Shown: positions 2,456 through 29,736 of the stretch, one piece after another
Position numbering within the stretch: the stretch's first letter is position 1
Layout: each line of letters opens with the position of its first letter
Virus record (IMG/VR): IMGVR_UViG_3300029258_005088
Strand: one strand, 5' to 3'
DNA: 64,000 nt
Source of the DNA: a virus
Made by a program: the position numbers and the translations under genes
Notes under the pieces: model-generated
What the model was told of the DNA's origin: nothing
The model's database searches: none
Seen by the model: only the letters and a program-made list of their open reading frames with translations

Positions 2456-3733
2456 CTATCCGCCTCCCGTTTCCGAGGACCCGGACGAAGAAGGCTGAGG
2501 TCCGCAGGGTTGCGGGCAGTTTTCATATCGATAATCATCAGGCGCTATCAAAGTTATTCCCTTCACCTGAGCATATAGGCTAAGCGACGTATTTATGCTC
2601 GTAGCCGGAGGTATGCAGTCGAAGAGCTTCAGACCTTCTACTTCGTTGCAGCAGTAGTAGTTCGTCTCGCTTCCCGCCGGGGCCCCGTTACAGTCTGACG
2701 CTACATAGAAGGTCAGCTCCACTCTATAGCATTCGCCCGGCTGGCATGTGGGCTCGTACGCGGACGGTCCCTGGGACGTTTCCGAGAACAGACTCTCAGA
2801 TGCCTCGGACACGGACTCCAGTGAAGAGGACACGGCGGATACAGACGATGATACGGACGATTCAGATGATGATACGGACGATTCGGATCCTGAAGACGAG
2901 CTGGTGCCGCATTCCACGTACAGAGCGTGGTTGTCCGGAGGCGTAGGCGGCTGCTGTCCGCTACCCGTTCCGCTTGATACGACCTGAATCTCAATATCGG
3001 ACGAGCTGGCTCCTTGAGGACCTCCTCCGGGCACCGTGCTTGATCTGGAGCCTGTCTGCTGAGATGATTCTTCCTCGGACAAAAACTCGCTGGAGGATCC
3101 CAATGTCAGAGACTCTAGGGAAGACTCACCAAGAGACTCTTCGGACAAGGAAGAAGATACGATAGGTTCCTCCAGAGACACCTCGGAAGACTCTTCGGAC
3201 AAGGAAGACGATGATCCTGAAGGAGGAAGCCCCTCACAACATACAACGCCTCTGACAAGGACCTGGGCCGTTGGAAGACCTGCATTCACTACGCCCAGTA
3301 CCTGGAACGCCACGGGCATGTCCTTACACACAGCTGTCTCGTACGCGGTACAGGCCAGGATGGCCCTTTCATCAAGACATGCCTCGTTCTGCTGTACTCC
3401 TAGTACGAATCTGCCTTCTATGGCGTTGTTGACCGTATCCCTGGGGAAGCCGTCATCTCCGGGAAATCCTCGTTCTTCACTCACCCCTATGAGGTTGGTG
3501 TACTTCCACAGATAATCGGGACAACCGGGAAGGCAGCAAGGACAATCCACGTCCAGGCCGTCCGGTCCTTTCGGTCCCTGCGGTCCGGGAGGACAGTTGG
3601 GAGGACACGGAGCAAGCCTGGCCGGCGCTCTCTTGAGACCTGCAGGAGGCGGTGCAAGAGCGCCACCGGCGGCTCTGGCCTTACCAGGCGCCGGTGCGGG
3701 ATCTCTCTTCTTGTTTACCTTTGGTGCAGGCAT
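2456..3733 (-). CDS. Basic Pro/Cys/collagen-like N-terminus + small beta module + Ser/Glu tracts + Cys-rich C-terminal module; probable virion fibre/accessory protein
   Basis: 425 aa; CPPNCPPGPQGPKGPDGLDVDCPCC; SSEE tracts; TAATG coupling to the upstream poly-Hint gene at 3733. Confidence 0.85.
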   Translation of the reverse strand: MPAPKVNKKRDPAPAPGKARAAGGALAPPPAGLKRAPARLAPCPPNCPPGPQGPKGPDGLDVDCPCCLPGCPDYLWKYTNLIGVSEERGFPGDDGFPRDTVNNAIEGRFVLGVQQNEACLDERAILACTAYETAVCKDMPVAFQVLGVVNAGLPTAQVLVRGVVCCEGLPPSGSSSSLSEESSEVSLEEPIVSSSLSEESLGESSLESLTLGSSSEFLSEEESSQQTGSRSSTVPGGGPQGASSSDIEIQVVSSGTGSGQQPPTPPDNHALYVECGTSSSSGSESSVSSSESSVSSSVSAVSSSLESVSEASESLFSETSQGPSAYEPTCQPGECYRVELTFYVASDCNGAPAGSETNYYCCNEVEGLKLFDCIPPATSINTSLSLYAQVKGITLIAPDDYRYENCPQPCGPQPSSSGSSETGGG

Positions 3734-6700
3734 TACGGCAAATTATCGCACTCCTCTGCGCATAGATTCACGTTACCGTCCAGTCCCGGAGGCCCTACAG
3801 GTCCCGGAGGTCCAGGACAACATGGTCTCGGAGGACACGGCGGCGGAGGCGGCGGTGGGGGAGGCGGAGGCGGCGGTGGGGGAGGCGGATCGCTTGGCGG
3901 AGGCGTCCTGTTGTGAGCCAACAGGCCATTCGCGAAGTACGTATGGCTATGCTCGATTCCCCACAGGTTGTAGACCTGTATCTCGCCTTCGACGTAATCC
4001 CAACCAGTGATCTTCAGCCAATTGCCTTTGTCGGTACGTACGCTGTCGCCTATGGCTATCTGTCCGACGTGCTTGAGGTAAGGATACGCCTTCTTCGTCA
4101 TGTCCGGCTCCAAAGAGCACCACAGCAATCTACCGTAGGACTTCGAAACCCACAGAGGATGTTCGTCGGTCAGCTTCAAGCAGCCGTCTTCGCCGAACCA
4201 CAGGTTGTAGTAACCCTCGCGCACCGGAGTCTGTATCTCCAATACCTTCTGGCCGGCAACGGTGTCTTCACGCTCGTTCCACGAAAGCACCAGATCTCCG
4301 ACTTCGACGTCCTCGATGTTCTTCGTGCTTCCGTCTGGAAGAGTAATCGGAGTGCCTGCCAGGAAGCAGGAGCGGTTATGTGCCAGGATCCTGTTGGCGA
4401 AGTACGTATGTGTATCCTTGACGCTGGAGAGATTGAACGTCTGGATCTCTCCTTCGACGTACTCCCATTTCACGATCGTACCGTTTTCGCCGCTGTCCAT
4501 GAAGATCTGATCCATCGCGGCCAGTTGCCTTACGCCCTTCAGATAGGGGTAGAACTCGGCCGTCATCTCGGGATCGATCGACGCCCAGTAGTCTTCTCCG
4601 TCTTGCTTGTGCACACGCAGGGGATGTTCCGCCGTTACGTTAAGGACCTGCTTCACGTCGTTGTCGTCGATGAAGAACATCCTGTAGTACCCTTCGCGGA
4701 GAGGTGCCTCTATGGCCGTAACCAACGCAGGCTTGATCTCGTCGTCGCTCCAGCTGAGGACCTCTTCCCCGGGCATGACGTCCTCGATAAGCTTGTAGGA
4801 GCCGTCCGGAAGAGTGATCATGGTTCCCGGCAGGAAACAGCATTTGTTGTGCACGAGCATCCCATCGGCATAGAACGTATGGGTACCTTCCACGGTGTCT
4901 ACGTTGTAGGTCTGGATCTCTCCGTGAACGAATCCGATGTGCATGACCTGGCACCACCCATTGTTGGCGGTCCTCACCTGGCAGCCTACCGCCAGCCGTC
5001 GAATGTCCTTGAGATGCGGGTACATCTCTCCCGTTCTCTGGGGATTGGCCGAGAACCATCCTTCGACGCCCTCGTCCCTGGCGTATACCGGATGCTCCGG
5101 GGTAAGCTGCAAGATGGTGTCGTCGAACATCGTGATCTTGTTGTAACCATTGGCCAGAGGAGAGGTGACCGTCAGTGCTCGGGCCTTGACCTGCTCTCCG
5201 GTATCCTCGTCCCAGGACAGAAGCTCGTCACCGATCTCGACGTCTTCGATGTTCTTGGAGGATCCGTCGCCCATCAGAACCTTAGTGCCCGGCAGGAAGC
5301 ACTTATTGTGCACCAGAGTCTCGTTGGCGTAGAAAGTCTTCGATGGTTCCACGCCTATGAGATCGAATACCTGAGTCTCTCCTATGATCCTCTTGATGCT
5401 GCGTATGCGTCCACGGGCACCGCTGACGAGCTGTACCTTGTCTCCAACCCGCATGAGCAGTATGTTGCTCAGTTCCGGGTTGAGATGGTAGCTCATGTCG
5501 GGATCCATCGACGCCCAGTACCAGCGACCTTCCTTGCGAACGCGTACGGGATGATCGGCGGTTAGTTCGATCTCGAATGAGTGTCCCTTGCCTGTGTATA
5601 TCTCGAGGAGGACGTGCTCCGAACGCTGTCTTACCTTGATATCGGTGAGCTTGCTGTTCGTCTGCTTGTCACGCATGCAGTTGTAGGACTTGAGAACGTC
5701 GCCTGGCTGAAGCTTTTCGACCTCTTTCTGCGTTCCGTCTGCCATGCTGATCATGGTACCGGCCAGAAAACACCCGCCTTTGTTGTGAACGAGGATGTCA
5801 TCGGCGAAAAACGTCATGGTTTTCGCTATTCTGGCCAGATTATAGGTCTGAATCTCGCCTTCGACCACCTCTATGTCGTTTACGACGAACCATTTGCTGT
5901 CGAAACGGCTATAGAGCTCGTCTCCAACGGCCAAATCAGGCAACATCGTGCCCAAATAAGGGTGATTTTCGAGTGATTTCGCCGAATCTACGGCAATCCA
6001 GCCTTCCCGGCCCTTTTTTCGGCCATACAGAGGGTGATCCGGGGTGACGTGGAGCGTTCTGTCGTCCATTTCGACCCTTGCATACGCCTCTGCGACGGGA
6101 GATTCGACCTGTTTTACCGTATCGACCTCCACTTTTCGGGTGGCTTCGTTGAAAGACAGGATTTTATCGTTGATTTCGACCGTTTCTATGGGTTTTTCGG
6201 TGCCGTCTGCCATCTGAATGCGCGTTCCGGCAAGGAAACAGGCCCCTTTGTTGTGGACCAGGAAGCCGTTGACGTAATAGGTCATAGTCTTCTTCACAGA
6301 CCACAGGTTGTAGGTCTGAATTTCGCCCTCGACGGCCTCGATTTCGGTGATTTTGGCCCTTCCGCCGCATTTCACCAGCATATTTCCGACCTGAAGGAGC
6401 CTGGGACTGCGAATATAGGGGTGTGCCTGCTGTGCGTCGAACGGTTTTACCGCCGCCCACACGACGTCGTCGTTGTGAAGCACCGCCAGAGGGTGTTCTC
6501 CGGTAACCTCTAGGTCTCCGTTGTCTGTTTTGACCCTGAAATAGGATGCATGCGTCGGCGATTCCACGCCGGTAACCGTTCCCGGCTCGTCTTCCTCGGT
6601 AAGTTCGTTGTAGGTAAGGACCTCGTCACCTACCTTCACCTTTTCGATGGGCTTCTCACTGCCATCGGCCATGGTGACGGAGGCTCCTGCAAGGAAGCAC

Positions 6701-7572
6701 CCGCCTTTGTTGTGCACGAGCACGTCATCGGCCAGGAAGTTGTTGTGAGGAGCCACTCCCTTGAGGTTGTAGACCCTGTGTCCGTGCGGCTTGCTTATCC
6801 AGGTGACGGACGTCACGAGCTTGTCTCCGAATATGGTCCTGACACGCATTCCGTCCGTAAGCGCTTTGTCGTCCAGCTCCAGTCCGGGGTTCTCCTCGGC
6901 GCCCTTTTCCGGACTGACGCACCGCCAGAGACGGGTACCATCGCCTTCAATGGTCATAACCGGGTGATCGGAGGTAAGCTGCAGACCGCTTCCATCCTCG
7001 AGATGGATCAGAACGAGCTCGTCGGCCTCCAGCGTGTACACGGCCCGTACCTCGGAAGGAGCCCACTGCTCCAGCGACTCGTCCAGTGACATAACCATGT
7101 CTCCCGGCTTCACCTCTTCGATACGGACGTAACCGTGATCGTACATCTTGATGAGAGTACCGGCGGGGAAGCACCCGCCTCCGCCGCCGTTGTGTACTAG
7201 AAGGTTCTGGCGGAAGATGTCCGCCGACTCCACGTCGACGAAGGTGCAGTTCACAGGAGTGTCCGTGACGATCTCCTTGACCGATCCCACTGGGAACCAG
7301 CCTTCCTCGAGATCGTACAGCTCGACGCCTTCGGACAAGCCTCTGTGTAGCTGGATCCAGTTTCCGGCCTTTGCCATGAACTTCGTCACTGACGGGAACA
7401 CGTACTTGTCGTCGATGATGACGAAGTGCGATACAGGCTTCAGCTGGGCCGCCGTGATGACGTCCCTTTCCGGCTCCTGGGCCTTGGTATCGAAGCCCCA
7501 GACCTCTTCACCCTTCCTGGGGTGATCGACTCTTCCCGTTATCTCGGTATACTTTACGATTGGCGTATCCAT
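3733..7572 (-). CDS. Poly-Hint (intein-like/BIL-type) polyprotein: 1 N-truncated + 7 intact Hint domains + polyPro/Cys/collagen tail
   Basis: Seven repeats of CF[LP][AP]G...TxxHP...[YF][ND][LV]...L[VA]HN of 150-156 aa, at 7173-6709, 6699-6250, 6240-5782, 5772-5305, 5301-4846, 4839-4375 and 4368-3910. The first domain (7572-7189) lacks Cys1 but ends LVHN. SD GGGGGAG precedes the ATG. Confidence 0.95.
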   Translation of the reverse strand: MDTPIVKYTEITGRVDHPRKGEEVWGFDTKAQEPERDVITAAQLKPVSHFVIIDDKYVFPSVTKFMAKAGNWIQLHRGLSEGVELYDLEEGWFPVGSVKEIVTDTPVNCTFVDVESADIFRQNLLVHNGGGGGCFPAGTLIKMYDHGYVRIEEVKPGDMVMSLDESLEQWAPSEVRAVYTLEADELVLIHLEDGSGLQLTSDHPVMTIEGDGTRLWRCVSPEKGAEENPGLELDDKALTDGMRVRTIFGDKLVTSVTWISKPHGHRVYNLKGVAPHNNFLADDVLVHNKGGCFLAGASVTMADGSEKPIEKVKVGDEVLTYNELTEEDEPGTVTGVESPTHASYFRVKTDNGDLEVTGEHPLAVLHNDDVVWAAVKPFDAQQAHPYIRSPRLLQVGNMLVKCGGRAKITEIEAVEGEIQTYNLWSVKKTMTYYVNGFLVHNKGACFLAGTRIQMADGTEKPIETVEINDKILSFNEATRKVEVDTVKQVESPVAEAYARVEMDDRTLHVTPDHPLYGRKKGREGWIAVDSAKSLENHPYLGTMLPDLAVGDELYSRFDSKWFVVNDIEVVEGEIQTYNLARIAKTMTFFADDILVHNKGGCFLAGTMISMADGTQKEVEKLQPGDVLKSYNCMRDKQTNSKLTDIKVRQRSEHVLLEIYTGKGHSFEIELTADHPVRVRKEGRWYWASMDPDMSYHLNPELSNILLMRVGDKVQLVSGARGRIRSIKRIIGETQVFDLIGVEPSKTFYANETLVHNKCFLPGTKVLMGDGSSKNIEDVEIGDELLSWDEDTGEQVKARALTVTSPLANGYNKITMFDDTILQLTPEHPVYARDEGVEGWFSANPQRTGEMYPHLKDIRRLAVGCQVRTANNGWCQVMHIGFVHGEIQTYNVDTVEGTHTFYADGMLVHNKCCFLPGTMITLPDGSYKLIEDVMPGEEVLSWSDDEIKPALVTAIEAPLREGYYRMFFIDDNDVKQVLNVTAEHPLRVHKQDGEDYWASIDPEMTAEFYPYLKGVRQLAAMDQIFMDSGENGTIVKWEYVEGEIQTFNLSSVKDTHTYFANRILAHNRSCFLAGTPITLPDGSTKNIEDVEVGDLVLSWNEREDTVAGQKVLEIQTPVREGYYNLWFGEDGCLKLTDEHPLWVSKSYGRLLWCSLEPDMTKKAYPYLKHVGQIAIGDSVRTDKGNWLKITGWDYVEGEIQVYNLWGIEHSHTYFANGLLAHNRTPPPSDPPPPPPPPPPPPPPPPPCPPRPCCPGPPGPVGPPGLDGNVNLCAEECDNLP
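3836..3888 (-). repeat. Polyproline tract (17 consecutive Pro) containing a 21-bp duplication
   Basis: ggcggcggtgggggaggcgga occurs twice, inside the C-terminal tail of the poly-Hint ORF. Confidence 0.9.
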
Positions 7573-7584
7573 GTCGATCTCCCC

Positions 7585-10500
7585 CTATCCGATGTTGAAG
7601 CTACCGCTGTTCCGGACACCGTAATCGCCCCAGAGCTCGTAGTACTCGTCAGGCAGCCACGAATCCAGTCGGCCGGTCTCTTGGTTCCAGAACACTCCGG
7701 AGTATTGAACAGGATGGAAATACCAGCCGTACTCCCCGGTGACCGCATCTCTGCGCCAGTCCGCGAAGTACTCCTTGTATCCCTCCCACTCTCCGGTGGC
7801 GGGGTCCGACAGTCTGTCTCCTCGTACGTCTCCGAACTCGTCCAGAATGTCCAGGCCGGAAACTATTCTCAGGTTGGGGTCGTCGACGTACCAACGATCG
7901 CCGTCCTGAGCGCCTTCCACGAGGTGGTTCCAGAGGCTCTCCGCCTCTTCGTCTATCAGCCTGGTGGCGAAGATAGCTACCTCGTCCAGAGTGGCGTCCA
8001 GATAGTAATCCGACTGTCCCACGGGATTCGGAGGAACGGGATAGAACGGAATGCCGCTGCTACTGGATTCCTCCATGATGGGAGGATCTTCCTGAGAGGA
8101 GCTGCCGACGTCGAACGTCCGTCCGATGTTCATCGGGGCCCAGTCTCCGACACGGCCATCGCTCATCAGATACGGCATGTTTCCACGGTATTCGTCCTGT
8201 TGTACGTAAGCGGATACCTCTTCGCCGTCGATGAATATCTGAGGGGCCCCATTGTAATAATGCTTGGACCAGCTGACGGTGATCTGGTGGAAGCCGTCGG
8301 TATCCGTTATGGCGTCTTCCGATATGGCTACGAACTCCTCTATGCCGGCTTCCCTGTTCGATACCGTGGTAAGCGAAGTGACCTCGGCGGACTTGGGATG
8401 AGGATCGGCGACGGGAGTGCTGTCCGGATTGGGTTTCTCCGCACTCGGCAAATACTCGTCGTAGAAATGCAGCGCCGACGGAGGATCAGCGTCGGGATCG
8501 TTCATGACGTACCAACTCTCCGGAACGAAGGGTTGGTTGTCGTCCGTCCACCACATCGCGTTGACCGCATCGGTTCCCTTTCCGAGGAACCATCCGAACC
8601 ATCCGCTGTCCGGATGCGTGTTCTGGTAGATGCAGTATGCTGGATTGGATGCCTTGCGATAGACCGGCCTGCCGTTCACGGTCCACGTCAGAGGATACGG
8701 CGTGAGCACGGGGGTGTCCCCATATCCGTAGTAGTCCTCGAACCACTGACTCGGTGGTATGATGTCGGTCTGTCCGGGATGCCATTCCGCGAAGAAGTAG
8801 TTCTCTTCGTGGTTCGTTCCCTTGCCTATGAACCATGCGGCCCAACCGGGCTCCCACGGAGAATAGTCGCGATAGATGTAATAGTCCGGGTTGGCTCTGT
8901 TCTGCCATATCGTCTTTCCGCTGCCGCCTTGCAACTGCGGGTAGTTGAATATCTTCGACGATGGTCCCGGATCCGCTCCGAGGGACGACACGTAGAAGCT
9001 CAACGGGAACTCGTCGTCGTTGAACACCGCCCAGTACATGTTGGCCGGCTCGATGGTCTCGAAGATTCCGAGAACCCACTGTGCATAGGATTCCGAAGCA
9101 TCTACGTAAAGCTCGAGGTCGGGGTTCTCGGTATTGCGCCATATCGGCTGACCGGCTCCCTGCCACTTCGTGATCTGTATGAGGCCGTTGTCGTAGAACT
9201 CCTCAGACCTGCGGGCTCGTATGGTATCGTCCTGGAATCCGAGATACTGCATGGTCAGCCAGGTGATGGGCGGCTGAGCGTGCTTCATACGGTAACTGTA
9301 GTAAAAGCCGTTGTTGTAGTCGGCGTCAAGACCGAGTATCCAACCATCCCAGCTGTCGCCGGCATGGAACATCGTGTAATCCCTGTCGAGAGCTACCTTT
9401 CTCCATACACCGAACGTGCCCTGATTGGAGGTGACGCTCCAGGTCATGTCCGTGGAGGGGTCCGGGGCTCCCGCTCCAAGGATCGCGTCCTTGGCGGCGG
9501 TCCAGTACTCTTCCGGTACGTAGACGCCGTTGAAGTCGATGTCCAGAGCTCCCGAGCTGGAGCTCTCTTCCGACTGGTCTATGGGGAGGCCGTCCTCGTT
9601 GAACAGCTGAGCGTTCTCGACCTTTATGTTCGGGAACGGCAGCGAGGGATCCTCGTATACGACGCGTGCGGTATCCCAGTCATCCTGCGATACGTAGTAG
9701 CCGTCCACTGCTGGGAATCCCGCTCCCTCTATCTGCACGTAAGGGTATGCGAACTCCGGAGTACCGTCGTTACCGTCTATGGAGACGAAGTCGTACCATC
9801 CATTGAGTTCCGCTATGGCACACTCGGATAGCGACACGGCGCCGTACTCTCCCCAGCTCTGCTCCTCTTCGGAGTTAGACGAGTTCAGAATCTCGTACCC
9901 TTCCTCGCTGACGTACACCCCGTCGAAATCTCGGATGTTGGCTCCGGAAATCTCGGCATAGTCATAAGGATTGCTGATAAGTTCCGTGGTCCTCTCGACG
10001 ACGGTATCGGCTCCTTTGCCCAGACGCACTTCAACCTGGTCGTTCTCGTTGAAACCGACCCAGTACTGCTTTCCATCGGCCTCGCGCCATTTGCTGAGAA
10101 CCGTCTGCCGGGTTCCTGTGGAGCTGCGCTTGACCGCGAACGTCGCCGCGAACTTGTAGCACACCTCTCCTCCGAACACCTGCATGTTCAGGAAATCGTC
10201 CTGTCCGCAGTCCAGGTAATTGGACTCGGCTCGAACGAATTCGGCTGCATAGGTGATCTCCTGGCTACTGTCCGAGGTGGCCTGCTCGTCGCCGGAACTG
10301 CTTCCGGTCTCTTCCACTGGCTGGTAGATGTAGCCCTTCTTCACGACGCCGGGAACACCGAACGTCGGGAGATTCTCGGTCTGTCTACGGAAGGCGTTGA
10401 ATCCGTAATCACCGGATCCTTCGTCGAAATGCCACAGACCCATGGTAAAGGCATCCGGATCCAGACGACGGCCATAGCCGTTGTTGAATGCATAGGCCTG

Positions 10501-11565
10501 CTCCGCGGCGCTTCTGACCCTGTTGCTGATACGCATCTCGGAGAACAGGGCGTCTATGCCTTGATTGGTCTTGTACTTGTCCCAGTAGTTCCCGATCAGG
10601 AGATTGGACTCGATTCCGTCGTTCGGGAAGACGGTTGCATTCGCGTCGAAGCCGTATACCGGATCCTGCTGGAGGTTGACGGACAGCGTCATTCCAGTGT
10701 CTTCGGACCAGGTAGCCACTACGTAATACCACTCGTCCTTGGTCCACTTGTACTGAGATGACTGAGCGAATCCCCAGTCGGAGAAATCGCACTCCTCGGA
10801 GGGCGTGAACCCCGGATTGAAAACATGCGTGTTGAAGCTCAGCGGGCCGCCCGTTATGGAGCAGGAAGGATCCGCCGGCAACATCTGAAGAGTAAGCTCG
10901 TCGCTGATCCAGCGGTACTCGTCGTTGATGACTAGACGGTTGATCTTGCTGAGAAGACATGCGGATGCCGGATAGGTGGCTCCCTGGTTGGATCTGTCTC
11001 CGCCAAAGATATTTATGGACGGCGACCACCAAAATTCTATCGTCAGTTCTTTCTTCCCGTTGAGAGGGTTCTCGGGATACCGGTGAAGGATGCCAGGTAT
11101 GACGGCAGCGACGTTGTCGAGTATGCCCGATCGAGTGCGTATGCAGCTGTCCCCCTCATCAAGGAAAAAGCCTGGCTGCAGGCCGTCTTCCGCGACGAGC
11201 TGGTGCCATGCTCCCGGGGTTACGCGTGCGGTGAATTGAGAACCGCCGTCGTGTCCGTATATGCTGGAGTCCGCGGCCTGAGGATCTCCGGCCTGCTGCT
11301 CGAACTTCCAGAAGCCCCTTATGGTACGCCAGTGCGGCATTCCTTCTAGACTGTAGAACCAGTCTATCTCGGGCGGCGATAGTCTATAGCCTTTGACGCT
11401 CGGCAGCGCGTAACTACGGTCATACATCTCTCTCAGGAATCGGTCCAGATTCTCTCGAGCGAGATTATACTGATCGTATTCTTCCTGCCCGAACGCACCG
11501 AATTCCGGGAGATAGAAGTGATCATTGACCGTCTTCCTCGGATTGTCTGGATTGCGACGTGTCAT
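7585..11565 (-). CDS. Large adhesin/tail-fibre-like protein with two LamG/concanavalin-like domains, the second interrupted by a ~550-aa repeat insert
   Basis: 1326 aa. LamG-type motifs WYYVVATW...IG...FSEMRISNRVRS, GLWHFDEGSG, FHQITVSW...IFIDG and LDEVAIF. SD GAGGAG. Confidence 0.75.
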   Translation of the reverse strand: MTRRNPDNPRKTVNDHFYLPEFGAFGQEEYDQYNLARENLDRFLREMYDRSYALPSVKGYRLSPPEIDWFYSLEGMPHWRTIRGFWKFEQQAGDPQAADSSIYGHDGGSQFTARVTPGAWHQLVAEDGLQPGFFLDEGDSCIRTRSGILDNVAAVIPGILHRYPENPLNGKKELTIEFWWSPSINIFGGDRSNQGATYPASACLLSKINRLVINDEYRWISDELTLQMLPADPSCSITGGPLSFNTHVFNPGFTPSEECDFSDWGFAQSSQYKWTKDEWYYVVATWSEDTGMTLSVNLQQDPVYGFDANATVFPNDGIESNLLIGNYWDKYKTNQGIDALFSEMRISNRVRSAAEQAYAFNNGYGRRLDPDAFTMGLWHFDEGSGDYGFNAFRRQTENLPTFGVPGVVKKGYIYQPVEETGSSSGDEQATSDSSQEITYAAEFVRAESNYLDCGQDDFLNMQVFGGEVCYKFAATFAVKRSSTGTRQTVLSKWREADGKQYWVGFNENDQVEVRLGKGADTVVERTTELISNPYDYAEISGANIRDFDGVYVSEEGYEILNSSNSEEEQSWGEYGAVSLSECAIAELNGWYDFVSIDGNDGTPEFAYPYVQIEGAGFPAVDGYYVSQDDWDTARVVYEDPSLPFPNIKVENAQLFNEDGLPIDQSEESSSSGALDIDFNGVYVPEEYWTAAKDAILGAGAPDPSTDMTWSVTSNQGTFGVWRKVALDRDYTMFHAGDSWDGWILGLDADYNNGFYYSYRMKHAQPPITWLTMQYLGFQDDTIRARRSEEFYDNGLIQITKWQGAGQPIWRNTENPDLELYVDASESYAQWVLGIFETIEPANMYWAVFNDDEFPLSFYVSSLGADPGPSSKIFNYPQLQGGSGKTIWQNRANPDYYIYRDYSPWEPGWAAWFIGKGTNHEENYFFAEWHPGQTDIIPPSQWFEDYYGYGDTPVLTPYPLTWTVNGRPVYRKASNPAYCIYQNTHPDSGWFGWFLGKGTDAVNAMWWTDDNQPFVPESWYVMNDPDADPPSALHFYDEYLPSAEKPNPDSTPVADPHPKSAEVTSLTTVSNREAGIEEFVAISEDAITDTDGFHQITVSWSKHYYNGAPQIFIDGEEVSAYVQQDEYRGNMPYLMSDGRVGDWAPMNIGRTFDVGSSSQEDPPIMEESSSSGIPFYPVPPNPVGQSDYYLDATLDEVAIFATRLIDEEAESLWNHLVEGAQDGDRWYVDDPNLRIVSGLDILDEFGDVRGDRLSDPATGEWEGYKEYFADWRRDAVTGEYGWYFHPVQYSGVFWNQETGRLDSWLPDEYYELWGDYGVRNSGSFNIG

Positions 11566-27154: not shown

Positions 27155-28177
27155 CTACTCCGATTCGACAGTAAAGCCGCCTGGGTGCTTCTCCTTGGTG
27201 ATGCTTACCCGTTGGTTGGGGAACAGTATCGAGGCGCCCAGAACAGGCATGTATCCCGCTCCGAGAGACAGTCCCTCGAAGTCGTCCACGGCTATGTCTT
27301 CGGTGCTTAGATTGATACCATAGGTATCGAAAATTATCTGATCGGGAATTAGAGAATCCCCTTTGGAAACGATCGGAACGGCCTCCGCCGGAGCCGTGTA
27401 GACGGCGTTGTCGGCGGCGATGCACATGCGATCGCCTTCGGTATATACGGCCTTTACCGTGCCTGCCTCGTAGACGTAGTCGGTCTTGGTCATGACCGCG
27501 AGCATGCGCTGAACGTTGCGAACCGTAGCACCCGACACGCGGAGATCCCACGCTACGTTGACGGCTTCCTTCGTCCAGATGTCCGCAGGGCCGCAGACGC
27601 CCACCATTATTCCGTAGAAATCACATACGGCGTTCACGTCCTCGAGAACCTGAAACCCCCACAGCACGTACTGGAAGTAGGTCTGCTGGTCATCTCCGAC
27701 TATGGCCTTCTTCTGGATGGAAGGGATCTTGTCCGGATCCTTAAGAAAAACGATCCAGCCATCGTCCAGTACATAATCGACTCCCAGTTCCAGTATGTCG
27801 CCGGGATCCTTGATGGAAGTGGCTAGATACCTGGGCTCGTATCCCTCGTCTATGGGAAACCGTCTTGGATCACCCGCCACTATTTCCTGCCCGTAAAGCG
27901 CGGCTCCGTCGTATACCAGGCCGTCGTCCCCGTATCTATGGGCCAGGCGGTCTTCCTTCGATTCATCGAAAACGAACAGGCGTATGGACTTGGGCTCCTT
28001 GACCGGGATGGTGTAGCGCGACATGTAAGCGGGAAGCGACTGGATGTCGGCGTTGAGCTCGTCTATCGGAACCGCTATGGTAGTCGCCCAGGCATTGACG
28101 AAATCCGAATCAAGAAACATCTTGTTCCAGAAATAGTCCAGTATCTCTATTACCTGCTGCTTTACTGCCGGTTGCAT
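27155..28177 (-). CDS. Baseplate wedge protein, gpI/gp7-like N-terminal part
   Basis: 340 aa; L.LGVDY....G.I.F and YG..VG motifs; directly follows the J-like gene with a coupled stop/start. Confidence 0.6.
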   Translation of the reverse strand: MQPAVKQQVIEILDYFWNKMFLDSDFVNAWATTIAVPIDELNADIQSLPAYMSRYTIPVKEPKSIRLFVFDESKEDRLAHRYGDDGLVYDGAALYGQEIVAGDPRRFPIDEGYEPRYLATSIKDPGDILELGVDYVLDDGWIVFLKDPDKIPSIQKKAIVGDDQQTYFQYVLWGFQVLEDVNAVCDFYGIMVGVCGPADIWTKEAVNVAWDLRVSGATVRNVQRMLAVMTKTDYVYEAGTVKAVYTEGDRMCIAADNAVYTAPAEAVPIVSKGDSLIPDQIIFDTYGINLSTEDIAVDDFEGLSLGAGYMPVLGASILFPNQRVSITKEKHPGGFTVESE

Positions 28178-29736
28178 CAGAGGACCTCTCTAAGGACTAG
28201 GTTTATCTGATCCGGGAAGCATGCGAACACACAGTTGCGATAGCTTATTCCGGTATCCGTGGGAGCCTTCAAATGGTTCTGGCTACTGGTGTAACGGACG
28301 GTGCCGTCCGGCATGAACACGCGGCCCCTGAGATTTATCGGCATCTTCACGATACCGTCGGGGAAGGCATATCTACAGGCATATACGACGTCGGAGGTGT
28401 ACAACGCCTCCACGCCTATGAGCTTGAGATTGATGACGTCGGATATCGTCTGCTTCAGAACTGACGGTGCAGGAGCGGTGACGCCTCTCGGATACTCTAT
28501 CTCGACGTCCACTTCCGTGACGATGGGGATAGCCGATTTGACGACGTGATCGAAGGCATGGCTCCTGATGGCGGGGTCGTTGAGATAGTCCTGCAGGGAA
28601 CCGACACCGGGCATGTGAACGACGCTGACGATGAAACTCGCCTCGTCGATAGAAGCCTCTACGGCACTCGTCTCGAACTGTATGGACATGGTCTGATACT
28701 GGCTGTACCGAGCGTGGATGGCGGATTCTATCAACGGCCAAGGTCCCTGCGGGTCGTAGTCCAGTACGTAACTTATGCCCGTGCTCTGGAAGGATCCTTC
28801 GTATTCGAAGCCAAGTACCCCAAGGGCGCCTGGATAGCTGTCCGCCGGTATGACGATCGTCCATACGCCATCTTCCTTGGTACCCTCGAGAGTGGCTCTG
28901 GACACTATTGGTATGGGAGCCGTCTTCACGTATACGTCCAGTCTTCCTCCGGAGCTTATGCCGGCATTGTTGGTGGCATCCCTCAGCTGAAGGTCGTCGC
29001 CCATGCCGAACACCTGCGCGTCCAGTACGTTGTAGTTCTCCTGCCTACGGAGAAGTTCCCGTATGTTGTCCCTTCCGGTAACGACGTTGGAGTTGACCCC
29101 GGACTGCGCCCTTTCAAGGAGCTGATCCGTGGTCTCCTCCACCGCGCCTCCGGTAAACGTCGAAGCGGTCTCGACGTCGGATATCCTCGTATTGCCCAGA
29201 TCAGAGGTACAAGCCAGCCCTGCGGACAGAACCGTTTCCAGGGCTTCGGCGGTCTGGGCCGTGATGGCGAAAACCTTCCGGCCATCGCCTACGTCACGCA
29301 TCTGGATATAGGAGATCTCATCCGTATCCTCTTCCACGATTTCCCCGGAAACCCCGACGTAGGATTTGATGGGGAAGAGCTGGACGCCGTTGCATAGGAA
29401 AATGCTGCCGACGGGAACGAATATGTTTTGGTCGGAGTTCGTGTAGACGTTGAGAGTGCCCGTTGCCGAGCGTCCCTGTCTGCGAACTACGTTGTAATTG
29501 GAAAGCAGCGCATCCACCAGGTCCGGATCCGGACTGTCCTGCGCCAATACCAGAGACAGCGCCATATTCTCTCTGACGTTCTCCGCGAAGGCGTACTGAT
29601 CCGCGAACGTCGCCGATGCCGGCTTTATAAGCAGATCGTACAAAACGGTACCCACGTTCCAGTCCAGGGACGGATACTGTTCCGTCAGGAACTGCTGCAA
29701 GGTCCGTGCGATTGATTCTTGTGTTTCAGTTGCCAT
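28177..29736 (-). CDS. Baseplate J-like (gp6-like) wedge protein
   Basis: GTVLYDLLIKP, LLSNYNVVRRQGRSATG, F.GGA.EET..QL.ER and GGR.DVYV motifs. Confidence 0.85.
   Translation of the reverse strand: MATETQESIARTLQQFLTEQYPSLDWNVGTVLYDLLIKPASATFADQYAFAENVRENMALSLVLAQDSPDPDLVDALLSNYNVVRRQGRSATGTLNVYTNSDQNIFVPVGSIFLCNGVQLFPIKSYVGVSGEIVEEDTDEISYIQMRDVGDGRKVFAITAQTAEALETVLSAGLACTSDLGNTRISDVETASTFTGGAVEETTDQLLERAQSGVNSNVVTGRDNIRELLRRQENYNVLDAQVFGMGDDLQLRDATNNAGISSGGRLDVYVKTAPIPIVSRATLEGTKEDGVWTIVIPADSYPGALGVLGFEYEGSFQSTGISYVLDYDPQGPWPLIESAIHARYSQYQTMSIQFETSAVEASIDEASFIVSVVHMPGVGSLQDYLNDPAIRSHAFDHVVKSAIPIVTEVDVEIEYPRGVTAPAPSVLKQTISDVINLKLIGVEALYTSDVVYACRYAFPDGIVKMPINLRGRVFMPDGTVRYTSSQNHLKAPTDTGISYRNCVFACFPDQINLVLREVL

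Follow-up and report, generated by a model that had tools for sequence, protein, structure and literature searches.

We analysed a 64,000-nucleotide stretch of viral DNA (IMG/VR record IMGVR_UViG_3300029258_005088), the whole of which we call the window. On its minus strand, at 3733..7572 with the stop codon included, lies a single open reading frame (ORF) for a 1279-residue protein that consists mostly of tandem Hint domains. We refer to this poly-Hint protein as P0001 and to its downstream neighbour as P0031; the other proteins and loci compared carry P and L numbers. A Shine-Dalgarno-like GGGGAG (7579..7584, minus strand) lies 6 nt ahead of the ATG, and the TAG of the upstream gene (7585-7587) is in frame with that ATG, four codons before it. 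Thus, no earlier start can provide a Cys1 for the N-terminal unit. These signals confirm the ORF as it had been called in a first-pass annotation of the window.

Pfam matched six Hint-clan models to P0001, all far over their cut-offs: Hint (2e-46), Hom_end_hint (1e-37), PT-HINT (1.7e-30), Vint, Hint_2 and Intein_splicing. The three profiles that the first-pass annotation had proposed for a hidden Markov model (HMM) scan, Hint, PT-HINT and Intein_splicing, are thus all among them. In PHROGs, the protein matched the unnamed family phrog_21587 (2e-37) and intein-bearing enzymes, and nothing else. A motif map and an alignment resolve seven full units on the minus strand, separated by micro-linkers. 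Unit 1 (residues 134-288, 6709..7173) is followed by KGG, unit 2 (292-441, 6250..6699) by KGA, unit 3 (445-597, 5782..6240) by KGG, unit 4 (601-756, 5305..5772) by a single K, unit 5 (758-909, 4846..5301) by KC and unit 6 (912-1066, 4375..4839) by RS; unit 7 (1069-1221, 3910..4368) runs directly into a C-terminal tail. A GGGGG linker (residues 129-133, 7174..7188) separates unit 1 from the N-terminal region, which we call N0. The units are 150-156 residues long, which leaves no room for a homing endonuclease, and share 27-52% pairwise identity. C1, F2, G5, T67, H70, P71, W83, H152 and N153 are invariant in 7/7 units. The residue after each His-Asn, starting with that of N0, is G, K, K, K, K, K, R and R, and at none of these positions is it Cys, Ser or Thr. 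The earlier description of seven intact, endonuclease-free and visibly diverged copies, each with Cys1, TxxH and a terminal His-Asn, holds on every count, and its list of +1 residues was exact. It had also pointed out a shared W.S..P.....YP.L insert. The stretch is there, but it is no special insert: it is a feature of the whole subfamily, and the W of the aligned W..S..P....YP.L stretch recurs in 79% of 268 Hint units taken from 147 other proteins.

We modelled unit 7 with AlphaFold2 (AF2), the seven units of P0001 serving as the alignment. The model is a compact Hint fold with a predicted local distance difference test score (pLDDT) of 95. A Foldseek comparison with solved structures placed BIL2, a bacterial intein-like (BIL) domain of Tetrahymena thermophila BUBL1 (PDB 6TMM/6Y75), first, with a template modelling (TM) score of 0.84 and 25-26% identity. 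The C. thermocellum BIL (PDB 2LWY) came second, followed by mini-inteins and Hedgehog (1AT0, ranked 12th). A sequence search of the PDB returned its matches in the same order, again with BIL2 as the best. The units of P0001 are members of the Hint superfamily.

N0 (residues 1-128, 7189..7572) is probably a degenerate Hint. It carries Met in the place of Cys1, lacks TxxH and ends in LLVHN. Pfam matches nothing in N0, an AF2 model made with two sequences reached a pLDDT of 41, and in hhalign only the C-terminal half matches Hint (E 0.0025, probability 12%). Language-model neighbours of N0 include Hint families at 0.90-0.91, and in the 177 proteins described below a profile of N0 aligned colinearly, over its positions 14-128, with complete Hint units from three unrelated proteins (E about 1e-3). 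We take N0 to be a probable degenerate Hint because of these weak profile and hhalign matches and because the first unit of a homologue, P0035, is a clear PT-HINT (5e-20) that starts with Met instead of Cys1. Eight Hint units making up about 94% of the protein had been proposed; seven of these stand and cover 84% of P0001, and the higher figure requires that N0 be counted. Cys1 and TxxH, the residues missing from N0, are useless without an upstream flank, and His-Asn is kept. That N0 lost just these residues argues that the chemistry itself is selected.

Beyond N0, the linkers and the units, P0001 contains only a 58-residue tail (residues 1222-1279, 3736..3909, minus strand). It reads RT, a run of 17 prolines, CPPRPCC, four Gly-X-Y triplets and C.EEC..LP. 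Alignment with homologues delimits the mini-collagen segment within it (GPPGPVGPPGLDGNV, 3769..3813, minus strand). No Pfam family matched the tail. It is conserved in P0001, P0002, P0032 and P0035, and the Gly spacing is invariant in all four; its collagen-like character lies in just these four triplets, which might form a triple helix.

The downstream neighbour P0031 has a matching segment. Its residues 43-73 (3515..3607, minus strand) are a Cys-flanked Gly-X-Y segment (CPPNCPPGPQGPKGPDGLDVDCPCCLPGCP) that corresponds to the one in the poly-Hint tail. The N-terminus of P0031 is Lys-rich, and most of the protein is Ser/Glu/Gly low-complexity sequence between Cys-rich segments; neither Pfam nor PHROGs returned a family for it. 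L001 and L004 conserve the 10 residues at its start (MPAPK.NKKR-like). In 4/4 tail-bearing loci the downstream gene encodes a Ser-rich protein whose N-terminus has a Cys-flanked Gly-X-Y run, similar in length, and then VDCPCCLPGCP.Y. From this correspondence we infer that the poly-Hint tail and P0031 co-assemble through their matching segments. A complex predicted between the tail and the N-terminal segment of P0031, the latter in two copies, scored 0.27 against a mark of 0.32 and is evidence neither way.

A further link between Hints and collagen segments comes from L003:2100-3863, the gene for the fibre-like protein downstream of P0035. This protein begins with a 33-residue piece of Hint blocks F-G that ends in VHN|K; poly-Pro comes next, then a Cys-flanked Gly-X-Y run and finally Ser-rich repeats. 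The position of a Hint C-terminal piece directly before the poly-Pro/collagen segment indicates that Hint ends and collagen segment are evolutionarily tied, and suggests that a single chain once carried Hint arrays ahead of the collagen segment. The piece itself resembles a split-intein C-fragment or a recombination scar. Upstream of P0035, a 48-residue ORF (L003:45-191) is an Ala/Val/Glu low-complexity string and probably not a real gene.

At least three tandem Hints with HN-K/R junctions, poly-Pro, a Cys-flanked Gly-X-Y segment, a C.EEC..[LF]P end and a fibre-like next gene with a matching segment occur together in P0001, P0002, P0032 and P0035. On these sequence features, we define the four as a phage poly-Hint/mini-collagen-tail family.

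The poly-Hint gene sits in a baseplate/fibre module, in the distal tail-fibre region of an uncultured phage; the first-pass annotation had placed it in the fibre operon. The upstream gene (7585..11565, minus strand) encodes a 1326-residue protein with a Laminin_G_3 (LamG) domain and is syntenic in L001 and L002. Around 7570-7590 this gene and the poly-Hint gene share a reading frame, split by the TAG and four codons. We rejected a read-through fusion of the two proteins because the genes are out of frame with each other in the orthologous locus L001. The gene for P0031 (2456..3733, minus strand; 425 residues, Ser-rich and fibre-like) follows immediately, its ATG overlapping the poly-Hint TAA as TAATG. 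More widely, the window is a phage structural module, with a baseplate J/gp6-like protein at 28177-29736, large LamG and F5/8-type-C proteins among the neighbours and head-protein PHROG matches further along. A search of sequencing runs found the window sequence in DNA runs from sediment and seawater metagenomes, possibly the samples it came from; no RNA run was listed. In L001, two genes past the Ser-rich fibre-like protein, a 728-residue protein (L001:12165-14351) combines Glyco_transf_9 and Glycos_transf_2 domains and may glycosylate the Ser-rich repeats.

The closest relative of P0001 is its orthologue P0002, 67% identical and encoded on phage contigs where its gene has the same neighbours and where a GpA-type terminase is present. 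P0002 keeps all seven units and all catalytic residues, which are thus invariant in 14/14 units of the two proteins, and its linkers are 100% identical to those of P0001. Nei-Gojobori ratios of nonsynonymous to synonymous substitution (dN/dS) between the two lie at 0.08-0.26 in N0, the first five units and the tail; saturation of dS prevented their calculation in units 6 and 7. Across related phages, arrays of 3-7 units occupy the corresponding slot of the tail module. The fragment P0032 covers units 1-4 followed by the tail. In P0035, three units stand between the Met-started one and the tail. P0034, in the same slot, ends in a short Pro-rich stretch without a collagen segment after four intact units. 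In the P0034 phages (L022:12520-14987 and L023:8579-11046), two Peptidase_M10 (matrixin-like) proteins, not a collagen-type fibre gene, follow the array. L021 and L022 share with the window an upstream run of tail-module genes for proteins of about 540, 325, 400, 300 and 235 residues.

A maximum-likelihood tree of all units sorts them by position rather than by parent protein: each of the unit positions 1 to 4 forms a clade across phages, with support of 97-100 (four phage proteins). Thus, the array is old and its units have not been homogenised. Decay of the catalytic residues in homologues had been named beforehand as an outcome that would refute the first-pass reading, and the relatives show it in part: P0002 kept every catalytic residue and P0074 did not. 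At the syntenic locus L021, P0074 has an N0-like start, one unit with Cys1 and a Gln in place of the block-B His, a second unit with the same His to Gln change and no Cys1, and a third unit that has decayed. These losses mean that catalysis is dispensable in at least one lineage. A whole-protein scan of IMG/VR with P0001 returned no relatives, and a degenerate DNA pattern for GEIQTYNL in IMG/VR hit 16 loci, of which 0/16 had a Hint by HMM and which we regard as chance matches. In the GenBank phage collection, the sole similar sequences were Vibrio phage helicase inteins, which are about 30% identical.

How common are such arrays? A profile built from the seven units of P0001 was searched against 1.84 billion representative proteins and gave 31,743 matches at E<1e-3, 6,867 at E<1e-10 and 453 at E<1e-30. 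We examined 177 proteins, mostly top profile matches. Two to seven tandem units are present in 159 of them: 18 proteins have one unit, 95 two, 32 three, 20 four, 8 five and 3 seven, the last being P0001, P0002 and P0004. Linkers are no longer than 4 residues at 135 of 218 junctions, the commonest being K, KC, KG, KGG and KGGG. The statement in the first-pass annotation that such domains usually occur singly is therefore false for this subfamily. Among 371 unit ends, 94% are His-Asn, and the next residue is Lys in 61% and Arg in 8%; Lys is found there even where the protein terminates in ...HNK. In the 268 units of 147 other proteins, Cys1 is conserved in 99%, the block-B His in 99%, the Asn in 97%, the Thr in 93% and the penultimate His in 90%, and these five catalytic columns rank among the ten most conserved of 152. 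Together with the low dN/dS values, this conservation bears out the earlier proposal that selection acts on the chemistry. The carriers include archaeal pilin-like surface proteins, Tim44-linked membrane proteins, giant proteins and phage proteins. BFVD likewise contains many phage proteins named 'Hint domain containing', one of which is named for a collagen triple helix repeat. Judged by its sequence, P0001 is the extreme, cargo-less end of a large and recurrent class of tandem arrays, not a one-off.

Several members of the wider subfamily have arrangements of their own. P0022, a phage-structural-like protein (1951 residues, PF16075), has a single subfamily Hint at residues 1222-1366, after GGGGGGS and before an Arg; this Hint is an intein-like insert without a +1 nucleophile. 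In P0023, a eukaryotic protein of 1062 residues, the region 560-803 contains a ubiquitin domain whose LRLRGG end directly precedes the Cys1 of a subfamily Hint, a BUBL-like arrangement that lies outside ciliates by its source label. P0007-P0012 (about 1100 residues) have an archaeal-pilin-like signal and exactly two tandem Hints with an HN-KC-C junction, flanked by an N-terminal domain on one side and by a long, Cys-rich C-terminal region on the other.

Which known system does P0001 resemble most? Its units fit the A-type BILs, as the first-pass annotation had proposed. They share with this group, which includes the C. thermocellum BIL, the Hint blocks A, B, F and G, a terminal His-Asn (7/7 units and N0), the lack of a +1 Cys, Ser or Thr and the lack of an endonuclease. 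Like A-type BILs, they lie within a variable surface or secreted-type protein and are not inserted in a conserved essential one; their flanks are other Hints or the Pro-rich tail. BILs have reportedly been described as single domains between real flanking domains. P0001 differs in its tandem arrays, micro-linkers, strong preference for Lys or Arg at +1 and near absence of flanks. The nearest solved structure, BIL2 of BUBL1, likewise has Cys1, the block-B His, the terminal Asn and no canonical +1 nucleophile, and it belongs to a head-to-tail multi-domain precursor. According to section 2.4 of PMC8616854, BIL2 resolves its thioester on a lysine, forming a Lys-epsilon isopeptide and joining the domain upstream of it to other proteins in an ATP-independent manner. 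However, BUBL precursors are eukaryotic and cytoplasmic and alternate BILs with ubiquitin-like cargo, whereas P0001 stands in a phage fibre module, has seven units in a row with only 1-5 residues between units and yields no ubiquitin match in Pfam.

Other Hint proteins fit less well. Pretoxin HINTs (PF07591) share the Pfam match and the layout of a self-cleaving Hint upstream of a C-terminal module. We rejected a toxin of this kind because P0001 has no toxin domain: its C-terminal module is the Pro/collagen/Cys tail, and the downstream gene is Ser-rich and fibre-like rather than an immunity gene. Canonical mini-inteins (gp41-1, DnaB, RecA) have the same fold and catalytic blocks; a class 1 intein was rejected because there is no +1 nucleophile, no conserved host protein and no exteins to restore. 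A Hedgehog/Hog identity was rejected because P0001 has a terminal His-Asn and no N-terminal cargo, and 1AT0 ranks low among the structural matches. A looser analogy can be drawn with the auto-cleaving intramolecular chaperones of Peptidase_S74-type phage tail spikes and fibres and with procollagen propeptides, in which a trimeric or collagen-like fibre segment bears a self-removing module; these are unrelated in fold and chemistry, lie C-terminal to the fibre and occur once. Our literature search, which had little coverage of subscription journals, found no paper on tandem, micro-linker, cargo-less Hint arrays, on a fixed place in the phage fibre module, on paired mini-collagen segments or on Hint plus collagen in phage. 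The domain type is thus already known, and its tandem cargo-less micro-linker architecture was found in no paper. The earlier remark that no described system has this layout stands as far as papers go; it does not stand as a claim of uniqueness, the layout itself being recurrent.

In Hint chemistry, Cys1 and block B form a thioester at the N-junction, His-Asn cuts the C-junction via a succinimide, and a +1 Cys, Ser or Thr carries out transesterification. No unit of P0001 is followed by Cys, Ser or Thr, so canonical splicing is excluded. The reading towards which we lean is a cargo-less, BIL-type autoprocessing polyprotein that is docked by its tail to the downstream fibre protein. A 'His-Asn-Lys' subfamily of A-type-like BIL Hints would make up the polyprotein, expressed from the distal tail-fibre region. 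In each of the seven full units, Cys1 and the block-B Thr..His would convert the peptide bond before Cys1 to a thioester, and His-Asn would cut the bond after the terminal Asn by succinimide formation. The Met-initiated N0 would have nothing upstream to release and would have lost Cys1 and TxxH while keeping His-Asn. The expected products would be N0, seven Hint monomers of roughly 17 kDa and the tail. The tail, with its poly-Pro and Cys-flanked four-triplet mini-collagen, would most likely pair with the N-terminal segment of the translationally coupled P0031, and this pairing would dock the array, or the released tail, onto the fibre. Some of the thioester flux may pass to lysine amines, as in BIL2 of BUBL1. 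The product may be an assembly aid, a virion appendage or a cross-linker. Domain identity, residue conservation, positional orthology, synteny and the match between tail and fibre protein form the basis of this proposal; cleavage, docking and the biological role are inferred from them.

A number of observations weigh against the autoprocessing polyprotein. P0034 fills the same slot with neither collagen tail nor downstream fibre partner, so docking by the tail is not a general rule. P0074 lost the block-B His in two units and Cys1 in one. The Hint identity of N0 is not secure, and the saturation of dS makes the dN/dS values rough. One Hint would be enough if just the tail had to be released, and the retention of 3-7 diverged units is left unexplained. 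Neither this reading nor any of its rivals accounts for keeping several diverged units.

The chain could also stay uncut in the virion, with the Hint fold serving as a compact building block repeated along a fibre or appendage and the catalytic residues as relics or aids to folding and stability. The N- and C-termini of the fold meet at one point and the linkers have 1-3 residues, so the domains would hang off a short continuous thread. Linkers this short, an array that several phages retain at the same place with its units in positional orthology and, above all, a P0074 that keeps the domains and loses the catalytic residues are what such a structural role would lead one to expect. It does not explain why the catalytic columns are among the most conserved in the outside units and invariant in P0001 and P0002, and the loss pattern of N0 (useless residues gone, His-Asn kept) is expected for selection on catalysis, not fold. 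We consider this role unlikely, if the strongest of the competitors. An outcome that leaves the chemistry in use is that the thioesters are resolved by a lysine epsilon-amine, of the +1 Lys or the lysines at the N-terminus of P0031, giving isopeptide-branched cross-links to the array, the fibre or an amine on the host surface. The nearest solved structure, BIL2, is reported to form such an isopeptide in the cited section of PMC8616854; the preference for Lys at +1 extends even to ...HNK protein ends, linkers often end in Gly-Gly before Cys1, and the P0031 N-terminus is rich in lysine. However, the Arg at two P0001 junctions could not act as a nucleophile and fits a charge role better, and the His-Asn kept in every unit would cut that unit from the linker bearing its activated end. 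Lysine-directed ligation is thus doubtful in our view. Equally doubtful is its stronger form, in which each Hint would pass the acyl group of its N-junction to a lysine amine, by analogy with BIL2, and the array would be a multi-shot, ATP-independent ligation device that covalently cross-links or attaches the particle or fibre. The +1 Lys/Arg, together with Gly-Gly ahead of Cys1, would then mark a new 'isopeptide-splicing' branch of Hint chemistry. The same doubt attaches to the idea that the thousands of profile matches (the 6,867 at E<1e-10), many of them tandem arrays, would share this branch.

Two further explanations seem to us far less probable than either of these. In one, serial BIL-type splicing, the Hints would be excised and the micro-linkers joined by aminolysis after Asn cyclisation, leaving a short Gly/Lys-rich extension on the poly-Pro/collagen tail; the tail so lengthened would be the actual product. 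A-type BILs can reportedly ligate their flanks without a +1 nucleophile. The complete conservation of the linkers between P0001 and P0002, set against 67% overall identity, speaks for such a product, and the joined KGG and KGA linkers would read as Gly-X-Y triplets. On the other hand, the linkers of other members (K, KC, R) make no meaningful peptide, and seven successive low-yield ligations would give negligible product; according to PMC7664689, BIL domains yield mainly N- and C-cleavage products rather than spliced ones. A single mutation has also been reported to turn BILs into efficient splicers. We think serial splicing very improbable. Least credible of all is a selfish or neutral expansion, in which units would have multiplied in a dispensable gene without benefit to the phage. 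The unit number does vary from 3 to 7 among relatives, but there is no homing endonuclease, the units are no recent copies but old ones with positional orthology, dN/dS shows purifying selection in every part that allowed its calculation (the tail and six of eight units), and the gene occupies a fixed slot across divergent phages.

In the twenty years since BIL domains became known, their role has not been settled, and P0001, which is nearly all BIL and has no cargo to release, poses the question in its pure form. It also has merits as a test system: seven diverged copies with the full catalytic set, natural relatives of 3, 4 and 7 units, and one relative with lost catalytic residues. If it were true that the thioesters resolve on lysines, phage particles would contain an enzyme-free protein cross-linking system, from which protein engineering could also draw short, orthogonal self-processing modules. 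Archaeal pilin-like, Tim44-linked and giant surface proteins share the junction grammar of P0001 (His-Asn, Lys/Arg, 0-3 small residues, Cys). Thus, a function learnt from this small phage protein would probably carry over to a large uncharacterised class.

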